From a virus: a stretch of DNA of 39,410 bases. The stretch lies in IMG/VR virus record IMGVR_UViG_3300045988_098250, positions 1 to 39,410 of that record. One strand, written 5' to 3'. Every line of letters begins with the position of its first letter. Within the stretch, counting starts at the first letter, position 1. The translations under genes and the position numbers were made by a program. Shown piece by piece: positions 5,787 through 35,942 of the stretch. The notes below the pieces were generated by a model. The model was not told where the DNA came from and did no database searches. It saw only the letters and a program-made list of their open reading frames with translations.

Positions 5787-6380
5787 ATGAATCAACGTAT
5801 TAATCCAGCAACTGGCTATCCTATGTCTACTGATAAACAAATTAAAGTAAAAAAAGAAGCAGTGTCTATGGTTAAGGCCTTTCATGAGGAAAATCCGCAT
5901 GAAGCCGGAATTAAATTTCTAAAAGAATTAGGCTTACCTGATCCTAGAGACGAAAGAACTATCCTTTCTGATAAAATTTATCAGCATATTACTGGCGTAC
6001 TTGGTGCAGAAGCAGAACTTCATTACAAAATGGGATTATGGGATGAAGCTGAAAATGAATATCTTCAAATTTTCTATTTAAGTATTTATCATACAGATGC
6101 CTTAAGAATACTATATTCTAAAGAACATCGTTATAGGGATGCAGTGTATATTCTTGAGTTTACTATGCAAACTATTTTAGATTTTCCTCAATTATTTTAT
6201 AAAGAAGATTATGCCAAGCTTTCTTTAACTCAAGAAAAAACACAGAAACTAGCTGAAAAAAAACAAGCACTAGATAAATCATGCTTATCAAGTGATAAAA
6301 AAGCTTTATTATCTCAAATAGCTAGTAACAATTTTCTAAGAATCAAAAATTGGACAAATGAAATTGAAAAGGAAAAATAA
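5787..6380 (+). CDS. Hypothetical lysogeny-module protein (moron position between repressor and integrase)
   Basis: 197-aa ORF co-oriented with and 10 nt after the repressor gene. No motif recognised. Confidence 0.6.
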   Translation: MNQRINPATGYPMSTDKQIKVKKEAVSMVKAFHEENPHEAGIKFLKELGLPDPRDERTILSDKIYQHITGVLGAEAELHYKMGLWDEAENEYLQIFYLSIYHTDALRILYSKEHRYRDAVYILEFTMQTILDFPQLFYKEDYAKLSLTQEKTQKLAEKKQALDKSCLSSDKKALLSQIASNNFLRIKNWTNEIEKEK

Positions 6381-30609: not shown

Positions 30610-31923
30610 TTATGCTGCTAGTCCGAGTAGTTGCTCATTATCCACAATAGCGTACTTAATGGCATCGCAAGAGTGATCGTCTTCCTTGATAACGCGCGGA
30701 TTATCGCTATTAACTGTAGCTGGATCCCACTGATATTTTTGGTGTTCTTGTAGAAATATCTCATTGCCTGGTGTTTTCAAAACATATAAACGCCCTTGTG
30801 CTAGAAGATCCTCAACACGGTCAATCATTGCTGCTTCACTCAACTTATGTACCTTAGACCACTGCGTGTTGTACATTTGCCAATATTGTGTATAGATACC
30901 ACCATCAGCAGAGTCGATTGTCTGATTATAAGGTAGAACGCCGTATTTATTGGTTATCTCATTGATAAAGTCATGCACACGCTCAGCCTGTTCAGATGCT
31001 GACAGCTTACGAGCGTACTTAGTTGGATCATAGTAAAAGGTATCTAGTACATAAACGTTGTACTTGTTAGTTAAAGCACACGCTACACAAGCGGTAGCAG
31101 ATACCATAAATCCGGTATCCATGCCGTAAAAGATTTCAGTGATATATTCATCATCTGGTATCTTATCCACAACCTTAAACAGATTCATATTATAGACATT
31201 AGTACCCAATCCAACAGCTTCACCAAGGTATAGCCAGCGGTAATAGTCCGGATCATTACGCTTATATGTCTCAATCAGGTCTAATTGCTGCTTAGTGGTA
31301 AAGCCTAGCTTGTCGTCTAAGTAGGTGCTTGTGTCTATGAAGTAATCAGGATCAGTTTGGCGCTGTGTAATCCATTCATTCACCCATGCGTAAGGATTGC
31401 GCGGTGGATTGTATGAAATATAAACCTTTACCTGCTCTGCAAAATCGGGTTTTTGTCTAATGAACGTAGGTACCGATTGATCGAATACATCAACACTTTT
31501 TAAGTTAGCAAACTCTTCAAACCAAACCGCTATCACATTACCCACAATGTTGGATTTAAGTTTCATTGGATCATTAGCACCGTAGAAGTAGAATGTTGAT
31601 CCTGTCCTTATATGAGTAATCGTTAAAGGTGATACACGAGTTCTGAACTCACTTTCAACGTGCAACTTATTCATAGCCCATAGAATCTGGTTATAAACAC
31701 TGTCACGTAAATAGCGTTGATTTTCACGTACACAAATGATGTTTACTGTTTTGCCTTGCGCAATATACTTCATCATTGTGGTAACAAGCTTGAAGCTGAT
31801 TACTGACGACTTAAAAGAACCACGGCCACCCTTATAAACTTGATAAGGCTTATTACTATTCCATGCGGTATAAAAGTGAGGATTAATCTCCTGGCTTAGT
31901 TTTACTATTGCCATTGCTATCAA
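30610..31923 (-). CDS. terL: Terminase large subunit (PBSX / Terminase_3-like, headful type)
   Basis: Walker A-like YKGGRGSFKSS near the N-terminus. C-terminal nuclease region with DDHSCDAIKY. The track start is TTG 31923; ATG 31914, 10 nt after AGGGAG, is more likely. Confidence 0.9.
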   Translation of the reverse strand: MIAMAIVKLSQEINPHFYTAWNSNKPYQVYKGGRGSFKSSVISFKLVTTMMKYIAQGKTVNIICVRENQRYLRDSVYNQILWAMNKLHVESEFRTRVSPLTITHIRTGSTFYFYGANDPMKLKSNIVGNVIAVWFEEFANLKSVDVFDQSVPTFIRQKPDFAEQVKVYISYNPPRNPYAWVNEWITQRQTDPDYFIDTSTYLDDKLGFTTKQQLDLIETYKRNDPDYYRWLYLGEAVGLGTNVYNMNLFKVVDKIPDDEYITEIFYGMDTGFMVSATACVACALTNKYNVYVLDTFYYDPTKYARKLSASEQAERVHDFINEITNKYGVLPYNQTIDSADGGIYTQYWQMYNTQWSKVHKLSEAAMIDRVEDLLAQGRLYVLKTPGNEIFLQEHQKYQWDPATVNSDNPRVIKEDDHSCDAIKYAIVDNEQLLGLAA

Positions 31924-32548
31924 TCTCCCTTATATCGTCTACAATGATTGTCTTATTGCTTGGATCATCATTTTCTTCAAGCGCCTTAAGCTGTGCTTCA
32001 CTAAGTTGTGCTTCTGCAAGCGTCTTACGAGCATTAGCTTCATTAAGTTTCTGGAATGTTTGATCACGGTAAATGTCTGGACGCCTATTTTTAAGCCAAA
32101 AAATAATAGCAGAGGCGTTTGGATCCACTTCTGTTACTGTCTTGCTTATAGGTATTTTTTCATAAACGTCAACATTCTCTGCTGTTGCAATTGCTATCTC
32201 TTCCCGTGTAGCTTGTGGATGATCTAGCTTATAAATGTTAGCAAACTTAGTACGTTCAGCTTTAAGATTAAACTCATCTTTCTTGACCATCTTATATTGT
32301 GTAGTGGTAAGAGTGTGTTTCTTCATAACTGAAATGAAAGAGTCTTCAATTTCAGCATCAACTATTTCTTTACCTTTTTTCAGGGCGTCACTCATGTCAC
32401 TATATGTACTTAACCATCTTTGAAAGGTTTGACGTTTAACACCAATCTTCTTGGCTATCTGTTCATTGGTTAAGCCATCTCTAGCCCATGATCTAAGCTT
32501 AGTGAGATTATCAGGCTCTAGCCATTTTTTGTATTCAGCATGTGCCAT
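31883..32548 (-). CDS. terS: Terminase small subunit (N-terminal HTH)
   Basis: LTNEQIAKKIGVKRQTFQRWLS is an HTH. 221 aa. Overlaps terL. Confidence 0.75.
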   Translation of the reverse strand: MAHAEYKKWLEPDNLTKLRSWARDGLTNEQIAKKIGVKRQTFQRWLSTYSDMSDALKKGKEIVDAEIEDSFISVMKKHTLTTTQYKMVKKDEFNLKAERTKFANIYKLDHPQATREEIAIATAENVDVYEKIPISKTVTEVDPNASAIIFWLKNRRPDIYRDQTFQKLNEANARKTLAEAQLSEAQLKALEENDDPSNKTIIVDDIREIDSNGNSKTKPGD

Positions 32549-32566
32549 CTAATCCACCTCATCACT

Positions 32567-32845
32567 TTAACCACCTTTGCTACCAAACGAACTTCTTTTA
32601 ACCTTAACGCCACTTCTTCTTAAAGCTATCTTTACTGATCTAACACTTCGTCTTGCGCTAGTTAATGCTTTAGTTAATCTATTACCGTTGGCTCTCATAC
32701 TCTGACCACCAGTAACACGATTAGCCATTCTTGTAATTCTACGGTCACCACTTCCAGTAGTCCGTAATCTTCTTTGAATTACTCTATTTTGATTTCTATA
32801 AGAAGTGGTACGACTAGCACTAAATAAATCTAACTGTTTAGCCAT
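32567..32845 (-). CDS. Arg-rich 92-aa protein with C-terminal ...SSFGSKGG tail (GG-tail protein 4)
   Basis: 18 Arg and 6 Lys against 2 Asp, by my count. Ends FGSKGG-stop. Lies 18 nt upstream of terS. SD is GGAGGTG. Confidence 0.7.
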   Translation of the reverse strand: MAKQLDLFSASRTTSYRNQNRVIQRRLRTTGSGDRRITRMANRVTGGQSMRANGNRLTKALTSARRSVRSVKIALRRSGVKVKRSSFGSKGG

Positions 32846-32961
32846 TTAATCACCTCCATATTTCACAAACTAAGAATGCTATATTGTCGGGCTTGAATGA
32901 ACTTTAATCATCTTGGCCAAACTAATTTTCTTCACAAAGATTTTTTAATTCAATTCCAGCG

Positions 32962-33660
32962 TTATTGAAAATATCTCTTTAACTGTTCAAATGTAATGTA
33001 TTCCTCATTAGCTGGGATGTTGGCCTTTTTATAAAATTCTTCCTTAGCTTCATTACTTGGAAAGATAACCTTGGTATAGAAGTTAATAACGGTTGAATCA
33101 TTATCCTTCTTCCTGAACTCGCTCTTAGTTTTATTAAATTCAGCAAGATTAGCCATCTTATCCTTTTCATCTTCAACTTCTTCATCGTAAGGCGTTGATG
33201 TCTTTGATGGTTCATCACTATTTGATAAACTTCCATCAAAATCAACATCCCCGTCAAACATAAAGTCGATATCAGACTTGTTAAAGCCCATATCTTCAAA
33301 AGAGACATCTTGCGAAAGATTAAATAGCTCGTCTAAATCCCAGTCACCTTGCATACTTGGATTATTAAGCTGTACGTTTAATTTCTTTTCTGTCTTTTCA
33401 TCAACATCAATAATTGCTACTGGAACATCATAATCTTTCTTTCGATAAATCTTATCTGCTGCCGTTAACCGTTGATGACCGCCCACAAGGACACCTGTAC
33501 GCTTATTCCAAACTAACGGCTCTATTAATCCATTTTCTCTAATTGCTTTAACGAGCTTCTTTTGATTACTTTCATCAATGATACGTGGATTATAATCAGC
33601 AAACTTGATCTGACTACGTTTAACTGTTCCATATTCAAATTGCTGCAATGGTTTAGACAT
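32962..33660 (-). CDS. ParB/Srx-like N-terminal domain protein with acidic C-terminal half
   Basis: IKFADYNPRIIDESNQKKLVKAIRENGLIEPLVWNKRTGVLVGGHQRL matches the ParBc pattern (NPR ... G.(H/R)R). No methyltransferase domain is attached. Confidence 0.8.
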   Translation of the reverse strand: MSKPLQQFEYGTVKRSQIKFADYNPRIIDESNQKKLVKAIRENGLIEPLVWNKRTGVLVGGHQRLTAADKIYRKKDYDVPVAIIDVDEKTEKKLNVQLNNPSMQGDWDLDELFNLSQDVSFEDMGFNKSDIDFMFDGDVDFDGSLSNSDEPSKTSTPYDEEVEDEKDKMANLAEFNKTKSEFRKKDNDSTVINFYTKVIFPSNEAKEEFYKKANIPANEEYITFEQLKRYFQ

Positions 33661-33662
33661 AA

Positions 33663-34085
33663 CTAACCTCCTCTACTGCCTGTAGAACCTTTATGAAAAG
33701 TAGGCCATAATCCTCTACCAGAAGCTGTTCCTATTCTTTTACCAGTTTTCCAATCTACGCCATGCTTAGCTAACACGCGTCTTGCTGCTTGTACAGCTCT
33801 GTTTTCAGATAAGCCGTGTGCAGTCTTCCATGCCTTTTCAGCATTGCTTGGTGGTCGTACTTTCCCACTAGATACTAATCTTTGATACTCACGTTTAGCT
33901 TGACTTCGTTTGTCATGATAACTTTTTATAGCTTTTTGGTTTTCACGATGGAATTTGTCCTCGCCTCTAGTAGATCTAAGCTGTCTAACGGAACGCAAAC
34001 GGTCATCCATAGCTCCGCTTAATGGACTTCCAACACCTTTGCGATTAAGGTATTCTTGCTCGGACATCACTTTTTTACGAGCCAT
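33663..34085 (-). CDS. Basic 140-aa protein with C-terminal ...HKGSTGSRGG tail (GG-tail protein 3)
   Basis: Lys/Arg-rich body that looks helical. Ends GSTGSRGG-stop, 2 nt before the ParB-like start. Confidence 0.7.
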   Translation of the reverse strand: MARKKVMSEQEYLNRKGVGSPLSGAMDDRLRSVRQLRSTRGEDKFHRENQKAIKSYHDKRSQAKREYQRLVSSGKVRPPSNAEKAWKTAHGLSENRAVQAARRVLAKHGVDWKTGKRIGTASGRGLWPTFHKGSTGSRGG

Positions 34086-34087
34086 TT

Positions 34088-34396
34088 TTAACCACCTTTA
34101 CTTCCAGTAGAACCTTTTTTATATTTAGCTCCACCACTAAATACTAATTTTCTAGCTTTACTAAAGGTCCTATCTGCAGACCTAGAGATGCTAAACTTTT
34201 TCCCGTCAGAAGAATATCTAGCTATTCCCTTGGTATAAGAAGCACCAATTACGTTAATCATTCCATTTCTAGCTTTATAAACCACTGCATTCGCTCCATT
34301 AATCTTTGCATTAGGAATAATCTTCGTTTCACGATTTTTCATGCTCTTACTAATACGGTTGGCTTGTCTAAAAACGGCTTTAATTCCTTTAGGCAT
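34088..34396 (-). CDS. Basic 102-aa protein with C-terminal ...KKGSTGSKGG tail (GG-tail protein 2)
   Basis: Ends GSTGSKGG-stop, 2 nt before the next start. The body is distantly similar to the 123-aa protein (AKINGANAVV.. versus VKFNGGSLAV..). Confidence 0.7.
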   Translation of the reverse strand: MPKGIKAVFRQANRISKSMKNRETKIIPNAKINGANAVVYKARNGMINVIGASYTKGIARYSSDGKKFSISRSADRTFSKARKLVFSGGAKYKKGSTGSKGG

Positions 34397-34398
34397 AA

Positions 34399-34770
34399 TT
34401 AGCCTCCCCTATTTCCGGTAGAACCAAGTTTGTATTTTCCTTTGCTAACTCCAGCAAAAATACTACTAATCATTTTTGAAGCCTTTTTTTGATCCGCAAG
34501 GCTCAGATACGACCAATCGGTCGCTTTTCCTATTCCTCTTGGACCAAGTTCGGTTACTTTGTAACTTTCTCTATTGTTAGAAAACACATGTACATTTCCT
34601 TTTTTGTCTTTACCAACTGCAAGGCTACCACCGTTAAATTTAACTCCAGGAACTGCTTTATATGTTCCACCAGCTTTTTGTCTTCTTTTTTCTGCTCTTT
34701 CCCAAGTGGTAGTCCACCAAGCGTGTTTTCCACTGGTTTGATAGCGCATGCCATTAGAATAAACTACCAT
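34399..34770 (-). CDS. Basic 123-aa protein with C-terminal ...KLGSTGNRGG tail (GG-tail protein 1)
   Basis: The start overlaps the PAPS-reductase-like stop (TAATG). Ends GSTGNRGG-stop. Confidence 0.7.
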   Translation of the reverse strand: MVVYSNGMRYQTSGKHAWWTTTWERAEKRRQKAGGTYKAVPGVKFNGGSLAVGKDKKGNVHVFSNNRESYKVTELGPRGIGKATDWSYLSLADQKKASKMISSIFAGVSKGKYKLGSTGNRGG

Positions 34771-35435
34771 TATTCCTCGCCTTTCTTATAAGCTTCATAT
34801 TGCAGCACGCCGGCCTGTGCTTCCGGGAAAAACTTAAGTATCCTCTGATAATCATCTGGGTAAATATGCTTAATTGCTGATAGCTCTTTGCCGGCTAACG
34901 AATGGAAACTAAAACCCAACTTGCGGTTAAACTCTGGATATAGCAGATTATTAACTTGCATATATCTCTTAATTTCCGCATCTCGCCAGTACATAACCGG
35001 GTAGAATCGGCCACGTTCAACATCAATAGAGCCTGAATGCTTTAGCATTGCTCTACGTACCACAGAATCGTTTATCTTTTCTCCGCCAGCTATCCACTGA
35101 ATACCAGTTTCTCGTCTAATAGCTTCATAAATAGCTCTGATCTTAACTCTAGGCACTGAGTAATCAGCATCCCTGAAAGAACCATATCTATAGAAATCAG
35201 CATTCTCAAAGTGTGGTACTCGGATAATATCTACATCGTAGTGACGCTCATATTTTGCTAACGCTTCTTCTTGAAACTTAAGACCAGGAACTAAATACAT
35301 GAAAAATGGTTGTACTGTCTTAAAGTACTTCTTGCACAGATCAAGTGTTACTATGCTATCTTTGCCCATAGAAAAAGACACAAGCACTTTATCGGTTATC
35401 TGTGCCTGTGTCTTAATTGCATCTAGTAAACTCAT
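34770..35435 (-). CDS. PAPS reductase-family PP-loop ATPase (CysH/DndC-like fold)
   Basis: KVLVSFSMGKDSIVTL is the PP-loop (SxGxDS) motif. The 221-aa size is typical of phage 'phosphoadenosine phosphosulfate reductase' proteins. Confidence 0.82.
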   Translation of the reverse strand: MSLLDAIKTQAQITDKVLVSFSMGKDSIVTLDLCKKYFKTVQPFFMYLVPGLKFQEEALAKYERHYDVDIIRVPHFENADFYRYGSFRDADYSVPRVKIRAIYEAIRRETGIQWIAGGEKINDSVVRRAMLKHSGSIDVERGRFYPVMYWRDAEIKRYMQVNNLLYPEFNRKLGFSFHSLAGKELSAIKHIYPDDYQRILKFFPEAQAGVLQYEAYKKGEE

Positions 35436-35450
35436 AAGATATCCTTTGCA

Positions 35451-35477
35451 AAATAAAAAGCGCTCTAGTAGCGCTTA
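35451..35477 (-). terminator. Intrinsic terminator-like hairpin between ASCH and the PP-loop operon
   Basis: On the minus strand: AAGCGCT-actag-AGCGCTT (7-bp perfect stem) followed by TTTATTTT. The hairpin overlaps the ASCH stop codon. Only about 20 nt remain before the PP-loop gene's ATG. Confidence 0.55.
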
Positions 35478-35942
35478 ATGTACGATATGAAACTTTTTAA
35501 ACTTGCTGAACTGTGGTTCAACATCTCTTTTTACTTTTCGTTTTGGAATATAAAGTAACGGTTTAATTTTGTGATTATACCAATCTTCAAATTCAGGATC
35601 ATTGTGATCTACTTTAACAAATGGAGCTGGCTTAATTAGCTTATCATCAACGTTATATAGTTTTAGCTGCCCTTTTACCTTGATCGGTTCAATTAGATAG
35701 CTGCCGCCCTTTTTAAATGGTTCTATGTGCCAGTAATAAAGTTGATCCTCCTCATTCCATTCAATATCCTTAATCATTGCTACGCAAATAGCATGACCAT
35801 AGATTGAATTAGGATACTTCCTTGCTGACGCACATAGTAACAATGGGCCTCTGTAGTTAGTAGTCCATGTTCTGTACTCTATAGTCTTAGATCCATTAAT
35901 AATATCCATGATGTAATTACCATGAATTGATAATGCCTTCAT
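35475..35942 (-). CDS. ASCH (PUA-like) domain protein
   Basis: MKALSIHGNYIMDIINGSKTIEYRTWTTNYRGPLLLCAS matches the ASCH N-terminal pattern (...I..G.KT.E.R.W.T.YRG.LLI). Confidence 0.72.
   Translation of the reverse strand: MKALSIHGNYIMDIINGSKTIEYRTWTTNYRGPLLLCASARKYPNSIYGHAICVAMIKDIEWNEEDQLYYWHIEPFKKGGSYLIEPIKVKGQLKLYNVDDKLIKPAPFVKVDHNDPEFEDWYNHKIKPLLYIPKRKVKRDVEPQFSKFKKFHIVH

Follow-up and report, generated by a model that had tools for sequence, protein, structure and literature searches.

A portable C-terminal tag on small basic phage proteins is linked to a PP-loop enzyme and a ParB-like protein beside the packaging genes

The window analysed here is the whole of a viral sequence of 39,410 nucleotides (nt) (IMG/VR record IMGVR_UViG_3300045988_098250, positions 1 to 39,410), which belongs to a siphophage of the Lactobacillus gasseri/johnsonii type and whose region of interest is 97.7% identical to phage JNU_P7. 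Four small basic proteins of 123, 102, 140 and 92 amino acids (aa), encoded ahead of its terminase genes, carry a common glycine-rich C-terminal tag. This tag is linked exclusively to a PAPS-reductase-like PP-loop enzyme and a ParB-type protein, in a module that abuts the packaging genes. Judged from the sequences compared, the tag is under selection at the protein level and is portable between proteins. It may define the substrates or clients of a three-part module, in which the tail would be activated by the PP-loop enzyme with ATP and coupled to DNA via the ParB-like protein at packaging, a reading to which we give a probability of roughly 0.38. The component superfamilies are known, and the whole system, with GG-tagged basic peptides, a PP-loop enzyme and a ParB-like protein at a packaging locus, matches no known kind.

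The tag spans ten residues with the consensus [KR][KR]-x-S-x-G-x-x-G-G-COOH, as in the tail peptide KVKRSSFGSKGG-COOH with its free C-terminus. Counting back from the C-terminus, G-5 is present in all of the 64 unique tails, G-1 in 61, G-2 in 59 and S-7 in 56, and positions -9 and -10 are basic. Some peptides have A, N, M or G in place of S-7, and two loci have a sole listed tail open reading frame (ORF) that lacks it (L068, ..RRAAGLAGG; L025, ..KKGNVGSMGG). In the window, a stop codon directly follows all four tails. A six-frame control on 56 related loci yielded 3506 ORFs of at least 40 aa, 103 of which end in GG and 95 of these in G..GG. Among the latter, each of the four from the window and of the 52 distinct proteins listed is encoded in the cassette.

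The first-pass annotation of this DNA had considered the ending to be conserved at the protein level rather than copied by recent DNA duplication, which agrees with the DNA identity of 63-73% among three tail junctions and with the mixed use of Gly and Ser codons. It had also cautioned that the last codons of the tails may be kept as the Shine-Dalgarno (SD) sequence of the next gene. The [KR]GG codons of the window do overlap SD-like sequence ahead of tightly coupled genes. Nevertheless, such an artefact of translational coupling has practically no chance of being the explanation and was rejected, since each conserved Gly (-5, -2 and -1) draws on all four GGN codons, with GGC-rich tails where the host has a high GC content, while Ser is drawn from the two unrelated codon families TCN and AGY and the motif extends over ten residues. 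Moreover, the tail persists where the downstream context differs, as the same annotation had proposed to check: tails also precede uncoupled genes with an SD of their own 10-18 nt downstream and, in one locus (L056), non-coding DNA.

Relatives of the module were gathered in IMG/VR via the ParB-like and PP-loop proteins, and a PP-loop alignment was then scanned against one genome per GTDB species. In nearly every related locus, between one and six small basic ORFs have the same ending. Tail ORFs, again 1-6 in number, accompany 46 of the 52 distinct PP-loop homologs; five of the six tail-less ones are the most distant homologs and the sixth is a prophage (L073). In this prophage, a core peptide is present (about 5830-5980) and is truncated by a stop after ..NTGRKSS, maybe by decay or an assembly error. 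A blind scan of the IMG/VR DNA with the pattern R-R-K-S-x-G-G-x-G-G-stop, which is independent of the enzymes, returned 43 matches, 42 of which close an ORF of 36-87 aa. Three of the 43 loci stop right behind the match; in all 40 evaluable ones, a PP-loop gene (hmmsearch E ~1e-80 or better) begins 0-110 nt further downstream in the same orientation. The same pattern gave at least 120 matches in JGI/ENA metagenomes, where chance matches are expected. Among the metagenome matches listed, 46 are evaluable and close an ORF of 25-120 aa, and the PP-loop gene comes next in 38 of these. The association of tail, PP-loop gene and ParB-like gene strongly backs the central proposal of the first-pass annotation, namely that an enzyme of the cassette recognises the tail as a common tag.

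Outside the Lactobacillaceae, the module is a triad composed of one peptide gene of 36-90 aa, a PP-loop gene and a ParB-like gene, with terS/terL adjacent. The peptide gene is located directly upstream of the PP-loop gene and often overlaps it, as in MSEIQRRINRVTGVTRRNVNRNVTRRNARNTFRRKSSGGMGG. Triads were found in phages of Firmicutes (Clostridia, including Oscillospiraceae, Acutalibacteraceae and Ruminococcus), Actinobacteria (Eggerthellaceae and Coriobacteriaceae), Proteobacteria (Dechloromonas, Bilophila and a deltaproteobacterium) and Acidobacteria (Bryobacteraceae), and phages from five or more bacterial phyla carry the tag. With regard to the ParB-like partners of these triads, all of them fall into phrog_9353. 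Either terS or terL adjoins the module in the window and in the loci of other phyla, and the triad of Clostridia phages lies well inside the packaging region. More distant PP-loop/ParB pairs, with 27-31% identity, are also placed ahead of terminase genes in Riemerella RAP44, Bacteroides BS-TP2, Pasteurella Pm86 and a Terracidiphilus prophage. Their small basic ORFs have variant Gly-rich ends (..RGANGSNG, ..GVGGGG and ..SGSRSSGS), such variant tails being seen in the Terracidiphilus, Bacteroides and Pasteurella phages.

The tail proteins of 123, 102, 140 and 92 aa have net charges of +16, +21, +21 and +22, respectively, and pI values of 10.3-12.0. The 92-aa protein contains 24 K+R against 2 D+E, in line with its first description as strongly basic (18 Arg and 6 Lys against 2 Asp), and the 123- and 102-aa proteins, previously suspected to be distant paralogs, are 34% identical over 92 aa (E = 1e-5). 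None of the four proteins matched a family in Pfam, PHROG, NCBIfam or PADLOC, and Cys is absent from all of them as well as from the ParB-like protein. A phmmer search with the 92-aa protein against 1.84 billion representatives retrieved just 10 relatives (representatives at 50% identity), and the homolog search with the 123-aa protein retrieved 24, all from Lactobacillaceae. The short peptides of other phyla have diverged too far for sequence search and are detectable through their neighbour genes or the DNA pattern. Close to the N-terminus, the core peptides have a second motif in common, [IV]xR[RI][IL]NR[TA][TS]G, which the 92-aa protein of the window carries as VIQRRLRTTGSG; the form shared by the 92-aa protein and the 36-60 aa peptides of other phyla can be written [IV]QRR[IL]xRTTG. 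Because this motif and the C-terminal tag are held in common, the 92-aa protein is, by its motifs, the ortholog of the ancestral core peptide of other phyla, and the 123-, 102- and 140-aa proteins are mosaic additions from families restricted to Lactobacillaceae phages. The core role of the 92-aa protein, the lineage-specific nature of the other three and the spread of the module across phyla go beyond what the first-pass annotation had recognised.

The 92-aa protein also begins with MAKQLDLF (32822-32845, minus strand), which fits the bacterial sliding-clamp-binding consensus QL[SD]LF. An N-terminus of this type is kept in all orthologs from Lactobacillaceae phages, including the 36-aa form from L. 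reuteri (MSRQLKLF...RASTGRSSG), and the core peptides of other phyla lack it.

The PP-loop protein had been recognised as PAPS-reductase-like by its motif SFSMGKDS, and it does belong to this superfamily, with a PF01507 match of 46.1 bits against a cut-off of 22.5. Within the motif, S22, G24, K25 and S27 are invariant among 43 homologs and D26 is nearly so, and many Arg, Asp and Glu residues elsewhere in the protein are invariant. The enzyme thus appears catalytically intact by motif, with an ATP-consuming reaction probably under selection, and it is predicted to act on the tail. It has a single Cys (C34), none in its C-terminal part and no set of Cys ligands for an Fe-S cluster or a zinc finger. 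The AlphaFold2 model (pLDDT 88.4) has the generic adenine-nucleotide alpha-hydrolase fold. The best Foldseek E-values were obtained for NcsA and TtuA, including TtuA in complex with the GG-tailed TtuB; their superposition on the model gives template-modelling (TM) scores of 0.49-0.57 and a root-mean-square deviation (rmsd) of about 13 A. By superposition and rmsd, CysH and FAD synthase are closest, with LarE, NAD synthetase and GMP synthetase close behind. A search against PDB sequences gave no match.

Several assignments to known enzymes of this type were considered and rejected. A PAPS/APS reductase of the CysH type would require a C-terminal catalytic Cys (ECGLH-type), which is absent, and the NCBIfam cysH models score 17-27 bits against cut-offs of 154-254. 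DndC, which has [4Fe-4S] Cys ligands and a Cys dyad and occurs together with DndA, DndD and DndE, does not agree with the single Cys, with the PADLOC result, which comprised no DndC match and only a 24-residue match to the BrxP PP-loop, or with the lack of dndADE-like neighbours. The TtuA/NcsA tRNA thiolases have a Cys triad for the Fe-S cluster and zinc fingers, whose Cys ligands are missing here, and carrier peptides of 36-60 aa are probably too short for a beta-grasp. As for IbrA, the 221-aa protein has PF01507 alone, with no DUF3440.

The ParB-like protein is acidic (pI 4.8, net charge -11). Its match to the Pfam ParB N-domain (20.3 bits) is under the cut-off of 26.3, its matches to phrog_620, phrog_498 and phrog_9353 are strong, its homologs bear a precomputed PF02195 assignment, and the NPR and GGHQR motifs are invariant among them. 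Foldseek placed the N-domain near CTP- and CDP-bound ParB, Noc, KorB and pNOB8 ParB-N, with E-values down to 5e-6, while sulfiredoxin (Srx) was a weak structural match. The N-domain also resembles the domain fused to phage DNA methyltransferases (phrog_498, E = 7e-26) and matches the N-terminal part of the PADLOC Type II DNA-methyltransferase model MTase_II (E = 1e-16). The protein can be placed in the ParB/Srx superfamily, with a ParB N-terminal domain, and it is predicted from sequence and model to bind a nucleoside triphosphate (NTP). In the model, the rest of the chain forms a long helix and a small domain at the C-terminus, and the linker has low confidence. Partition or Noc-type ParB clamps have a DNA-binding helix-turn-helix, a dimerisation domain at the C-terminus and a parS/ParA partner. 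No ParA gene was found near the module in the window, and no conserved repeats or parS-like sites were seen in the cassette except for the tail junctions. The ParB-like protein is an obligate partner of the PP-loop enzyme; one IMG/VR contig (L097) carries ASCH, peptide and PP-loop genes and no ParB-like ORF.

The protein upstream of the PP-loop gene is a member of the ASCH family (30.3 bits against a cut-off of 21.2), with the GxKxxExR motif present as NGSKTIEYR, and its closest PDB sequences are the ASCH domains of ASC-1/TRIP4. Of 69 distinct loci, 18 have an ASCH-like ORF immediately upstream of the module; these belong to Lactobacillaceae phages and to a second PP-loop group. In Riemerella RAP44 (L127) and Bacteroides BS-TP2 (L129) as well, ASCH comes first, then a small basic ORF, the PP-loop and ParB-like genes, terS and terL. 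Since it is found in Lactobacillaceae phages, the second PP-loop group, phages of Bacteroidota and contig L097, ASCH is a recurrent, optional accessory that has been recruited repeatedly.

The tag is carried by about 25 clusters of unrelated bodies, all with 17-30% K+R. In the Lactobacillaceae, the tail families are pronounced mosaics in which N-modules, bodies and tails have been reshuffled, and each phage encodes 1-6 tagged proteins. Owing to this number of bodies, the number of tagged proteins per phage and the heavy mosaicism, the expansion is consistent with an exchangeable cargo loaded alongside the genome. In L. reuteri phages (L002, L017-L020), all listed tails end in -SSG or -MGH instead of -GG, with S-7 and G-5 kept; in the phage LR1, for instance, the ortholog of the 140-aa protein ends in ...KGSSGKSSG. 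As the paralogous tails of these phages change together, their concerted shift suggests co-evolution with one common recogniser.

Individual genomes provide some further observations on this mosaicism. Phage JNU_P7 (L001 2831-4328, compared with 32962-34770 of the window) has no 102-aa gene, and its 123-aa protein bears the tail of that gene, GSTGSKGG, which indicates an apparent deletion by recombination between two tails. The ParB-like gene of the same phage is split into two ORFs. Natural hybrids were found among the homologs of the 123-aa protein (P0133 and P0129): in one, the 123-aa N-module is continued by the last 22 residues of the 92-aa core protein, and in the second, it is joined straight to the C-terminal domain of the ParB-like protein. 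Some of a further set of sequences (P0132, P0136, P0140, P0144 and L010 3808-4254) have no stop after GG (GHSGGNMLIYGYK, ..SGGRNLL), maybe because of decay or assembly errors.

The layout of the module in the window is listed in Table 1. Every element that had been described from the ASCH gene to terS was found again in its order and position, including the hairpin and T-run downstream of ASCH (35476-35458). From the PP-loop gene to terS, the intergenic gaps are -1, 2, 2, 2, 116 and 18 nt, so the tight coupling and the two longer gaps reported earlier also hold. The 123-, 102- and 140-aa genes are consecutive and stop/start-coupled, and the ParB-like gene comes next. Genes for tRNAs like the tRNA-Phe of the window are located at the equivalent spot in the L. 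johnsonii prophages Lj965 and Lj771.

Table 1. Features of the tagged-protein module and its surroundings in the window, in minus-strand order
Feature	Position	Strand	Evidence or remark
ArpU-type activator, first in minus-strand order			phrog_248
tRNA-Phe, anticodon GAA	35971..36046	-	between ArpU-like late activator and ASCH
ASCH-domain protein, 155 aa	35475..35942	-	PF04266, 30.3 bits
Terminator-like hairpin and T-run, between ASCH and PP-loop genes	35458..35476	-	7-bp stem, 4 GC pairs, then TTTATTTT
PAPS-reductase-like PP-loop ATP pyrophosphatase, 221 aa	34770..35435	-	PF01507, 46.1 bits; motif SFSMGKDS
Basic tail protein, 123 aa, C-terminus ...KYKLGSTGNRGG (LGSTGNRGG)	34399..34770	-	
Basic tail protein, 102 aa, C-terminus ...KYKKGSTGSKGG (KGSTGSKGG)	34088..34396	-	
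Basic tail protein, 140 aa, C-terminus ...TFHKGSTGSRGG (KGSTGSRGG)	33663..34085	-	
Acidic ParB-N-like protein, 232 aa, ...VGGHQRL	32962..33660	-	phrog_9353, E = 3.6e-85
Core tail peptide, 92 aa, C-terminus ...VKRSSFGSKGG	32567..32845	-	N-proximal motif and C-terminal tag
Terminase small subunit, terS	31883..32548	-	phrog_309, E = 4.4e-44
terL, as listed from TTG start	30610..31923	-	41-nt overlap with terS end

In the mechanism that we favour, the module would be expressed with the late genes, beside terS/terL, and would consist of a small and strongly basic peptide that is probably disordered and binds nucleic acid (the 92-aa protein in the window), a PAPS-reductase-like PP-loop ATP pyrophosphatase and an acidic protein with a ParB-type NTP-binding N-domain. 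The flexible tail would be bound by the PP-loop enzyme and activated with ATP, the likeliest reaction being adenylation of the C-terminal Gly carboxylate. With the ParB-like partner as the putative DNA-engaging subunit, the basic protein would be attached to or loaded onto the phage DNA during packaging and would travel with the genome into the next host. The Lactobacillaceae phages would have grafted the tag onto further fast-evolving basic proteins, those of 123, 102 and 140 aa in the window, and the ASCH protein may read or reverse the product. In sum, we infer that the enzyme acts on the tail as its substrate, with the carboxylate as reactive group and DNA as acceptor, and that delivery of the proteins accompanies that of the DNA. 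A more specific version, in which the PP-loop enzyme ligates the adenylated peptide covalently to the genome during packaging, for example at an exocyclic base amine or a DNA end, with the ParB-like protein acting as a guiding CTPase and ASCH as a reader or eraser, strikes us as rather doubtful.

Adenylation of the Gly carboxylate is favoured because PP-loop enzymes, among them NAD synthetase, LarE, QueC and asparagine synthetase, commonly adenylate carboxylates, and because the tag must end exactly at the C-terminus. Activation of the tail is also favoured by analogy with ThiS/ThiF, MoaD/MoeB and MccA/MccB, where the small gene just ahead of the one for the adenylating enzyme provides the substrate that is activated at its C-terminus. 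DNA seems the probable target because ParB-like partners serve other DNA-modifying enzymes, because the tagged proteins are extremely basic and because the module sits beside terS/terL.

Several points weigh against this proposal. The ATP-using members of the PAPS_reduct family transfer AMP to sulfate or phosphate (CysD and FMN adenylyltransferase), and we know of no PAPS_reduct enzyme that adenylates a protein C-terminus. The Foldseek comparison does not discriminate, with TM scores of 0.5-0.6 to all PP-loop chemistries. With regard to the ParB-like protein, neither an HTH_ParB domain nor another helix-turn-helix (HTH) DNA-binding domain was recognisable by Pfam and in the model. Terminal variants such as -SSG, -MGH, -NGH and -SGN exist, and the conservation of S-7 and G-5 equals or exceeds that of the terminal GG, so that a docking motif or a Ser-directed chemistry would fit equally. 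Finally, protein-linked DNA would need to pass through the portal and the tail.

A docking motif would make the tag a non-covalent docking or encapsidation signal, the tail and its free carboxylate binding the ParB-like or the PP-loop protein and the resulting complex chaperoning the basic proteins to DNA or proheads, in a manner comparable to the capsid-targeting sequences of T4 internal proteins or to the C-terminal tails of the single-stranded DNA-binding protein SSB. The PP-loop enzyme would then act elsewhere, for example on a DNA base, with the peptides serving as DNA-binding adaptors. This is possible if somewhat unlikely, and several features are in its favour: the charges are complementary (-11 for the ParB-like protein, +16 to +22 for the tail proteins), about 25 unrelated bodies carry the portable tag, the terminase genes abut the module, -SSG, -MGH and -SGN are tolerated as end residues, and S-7 and G-5 keep a fixed distance from the C-terminus, which is typical of C-terminal peptide recognition. 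However, the peptide gene is fixed directly upstream of the PP-loop gene, often overlapping it, and not beside the ParB gene, the invariance of the PP-loop motif implies a selected ATP-consuming reaction, and docking names no substrate for the enzyme. A Ser-directed chemistry would instead have the [KR][KR]-x-S motif phosphorylated by the ParB/Srx-fold protein, for which Srx and the ParB/Srx-fold serine kinase SerK are comparators, or have an AMP-phosphate linkage made by the PAPS_reduct-like enzyme on phospho-Ser or on the DNA 5'-phosphate left by the terminase. The outcome would be a Ser-O-phosphodiester link between peptide and DNA end, that is, a 'terminal peptide' added after packaging. 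S-7 (56/64) and G-5 (64/64) are kept in L. reuteri phages despite the loss of GG, the closest structures by rmsd, CysH and FAD synthase, belong to a family that moves AMP to oxyanions, and the products of the neighbouring terminase genes make DNA ends. We nonetheless regard this chemistry as improbable: some tails have A, N, M or G at S-7, including those of the sole-tail loci L068 and L025, the ParB-like domain is closer to CTP-binding ParB than to Srx, and it is left unexplained why the tag ends exactly seven residues past the Ser.

The module could also be regulatory, with an Arg-rich peptide (like the arginine-rich motif of lambda N) and an IbrA/IbrB-like pair acting as a late-gene co-activator or antiterminator. 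The peptides are indeed Arg-rich, the module opens the late operon, right behind the ArpU-type activator and a terminator-like hairpin, and Sandt et al. in 2002 are said to have described IbrAB as activators of prophage genes. Notwithstanding, such a role appears very unlikely, as the Clostridia triad lies deep in the packaging region, one to six diversified tagged paralogs would be superfluous for a regulator, and the IbrA feature DUF3440 is missing. Still further from the evidence is a sulfur relay, one of the options offered by the first-pass annotation, in which the GG tail would be converted to a thiocarboxylate as in TtuB, ThiS or MoaD and supply sulfur for thiolation of DNA or tRNA or for phosphorothioation. 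TtuA, NcsA and the TtuA-TtuB complex have the top Foldseek E-values, the tail ends in GG, and the pairing of PAPS_reduct and ParB is reminiscent of DndC/DndB. Against this, the PP-loop enzyme contains a lone Cys and lacks Fe-S and zinc-finger ligands, Cys is altogether absent from the tail and ParB-like proteins, PADLOC gives no DndC match, the peptides are probably too short and too basic for a beta-grasp, and no gene for a cysteine desulfurase, a rhodanese or an E1-like enzyme is linked at the loci examined; the relay is accordingly disfavoured and we deem it highly improbable. The comparison with DndB/DndC and IbrB/IbrA made in the same annotation stands as far as the pairing of a ParB-like with a PAPS_reduct protein is concerned, and fails with the DndC model and DUF3440.

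The proposed activation of the tail has parallels in several known systems. The GG carriers (ThiS/ThiF, MoaD/MoeB, TtuB/TtuA, Urm1/SAMP-NcsA and ubiquitin/E1) likewise combine a small protein with a free GG tail and an adjacent enzyme that cleaves ATP at the alpha-phosphate, and TtuA and NcsA are the PP-loop enzymes with the best Foldseek E-values for the enzyme of the window. In contrast, the phage peptides are 36-90 aa long, Arg/Lys-rich, of low complexity and probably not beta-grasp proteins: despite their GG terminus they have no Pfam match, and with 20-30% K+R the core peptides of 36-60 aa are unlikely to adopt this fold. Furthermore, the phage module has no E1-like enzyme, its PP-loop enzyme lacks the Cys ligands for Fe-S or Zn, its tag occurs on many unrelated bodies and is thus cargo-like rather than a single modifier, and it pairs with a ParB-like protein in a DNA-packaging context. 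Pup/PafA and MccA/MccB also comprise a short or disordered product, encoded upstream of the enzyme, whose C-terminal residue is activated with ATP. However, PafA is glutamine-synthetase-like and MccB E1-like, in place of a PAPS_reduct PP-loop enzyme, Pup ends in GGQ/GGE and MccA in N, and neither system has a ParB-like partner or a terminase link. With regard to late DNA-associated proteins, adenovirus Mu and VII, the T4 internal proteins and P1 Dar are likewise small or basic, or bear a short shared mark on diverse cargo, and mature adenovirus Mu has the C-terminus ...RGG. The T4 tags are nevertheless N-terminal, the adenovirus ends result from protease cleavage, and neither uses an ATP-pyrophosphatase or a ParB-like enzyme. 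Packaging into the virion is known for these core and internal proteins and is predicted for the phage tail proteins described here.

A ParB/Srx-fold protein combined with a nucleic-acid-modifying enzyme is also found in DndB/DndC, IbrB/IbrA, DpdB/DpdA, the T-dioxygenases and the ParB-methyltransferase fusions, and DndC and IbrA belong to the PAPS_reduct family, like the enzyme of the window. The phage module differs in having no DndA, DndD or DndE, no DndC cysteines and no IbrA DUF3440. Phage T-dioxygenases require ParB-like partners (bioRxiv 10.1101/2025.08.14.668559; PMC13229309), DpdB/DpdA and DndB/DndC combine a ParB-like partner with a DNA-modifying enzyme (PMC12839542, as summarised there; PMC10853773), and ParB-methyltransferase fusions are found in phages (PMC5512222). 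In the literature searched, no GG-tailed basic peptides were reported for systems of a ParB-like protein and a modifying enzyme. Genes for PAPS-reductase-like and ParB-like proteins next to the terminase are frequent in prophages and are usually labelled 'host sulfur metabolism' or 'partition/nuclease' (PMC11318856), and lambda NinC, which is annotated as a member of the PAPS-reductase family, is non-essential according to the earlier literature cited (PMC10695390). In published genomes, the genes of the module go under labels such as hypothetical protein, 'PAPS reductase (host metabolism)' or 'ParB-like nuclease', and the full-text literature searched describes neither the tag nor the peptide family nor the triad.

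One large clade of these terminase-adjacent PP-loop and ParB genes is therefore an obligate triad with previously unannotated peptides and a nearly invariant free C-terminal tag. An orphan PP-loop enzyme gains a defined enzyme-substrate hypothesis, whose outcome may be the activation of C-termini by a PP-loop enzyme, the joining of proteins or peptides to DNA, or a new encapsidation tag. In temperate phages of gut Firmicutes, Actinobacteria and Proteobacteria, the packaged DNA could in this way be furnished with fast-evolving accessory proteins, possibly directed against host defence, and the ten-residue tag could serve as a tool for loading cargo into capsids. If the covalent reading is true, the module would be the first example of enzymatic 'peptidylation' of DNA, by which changeable proteins would reach the next host tethered to the injected DNA.

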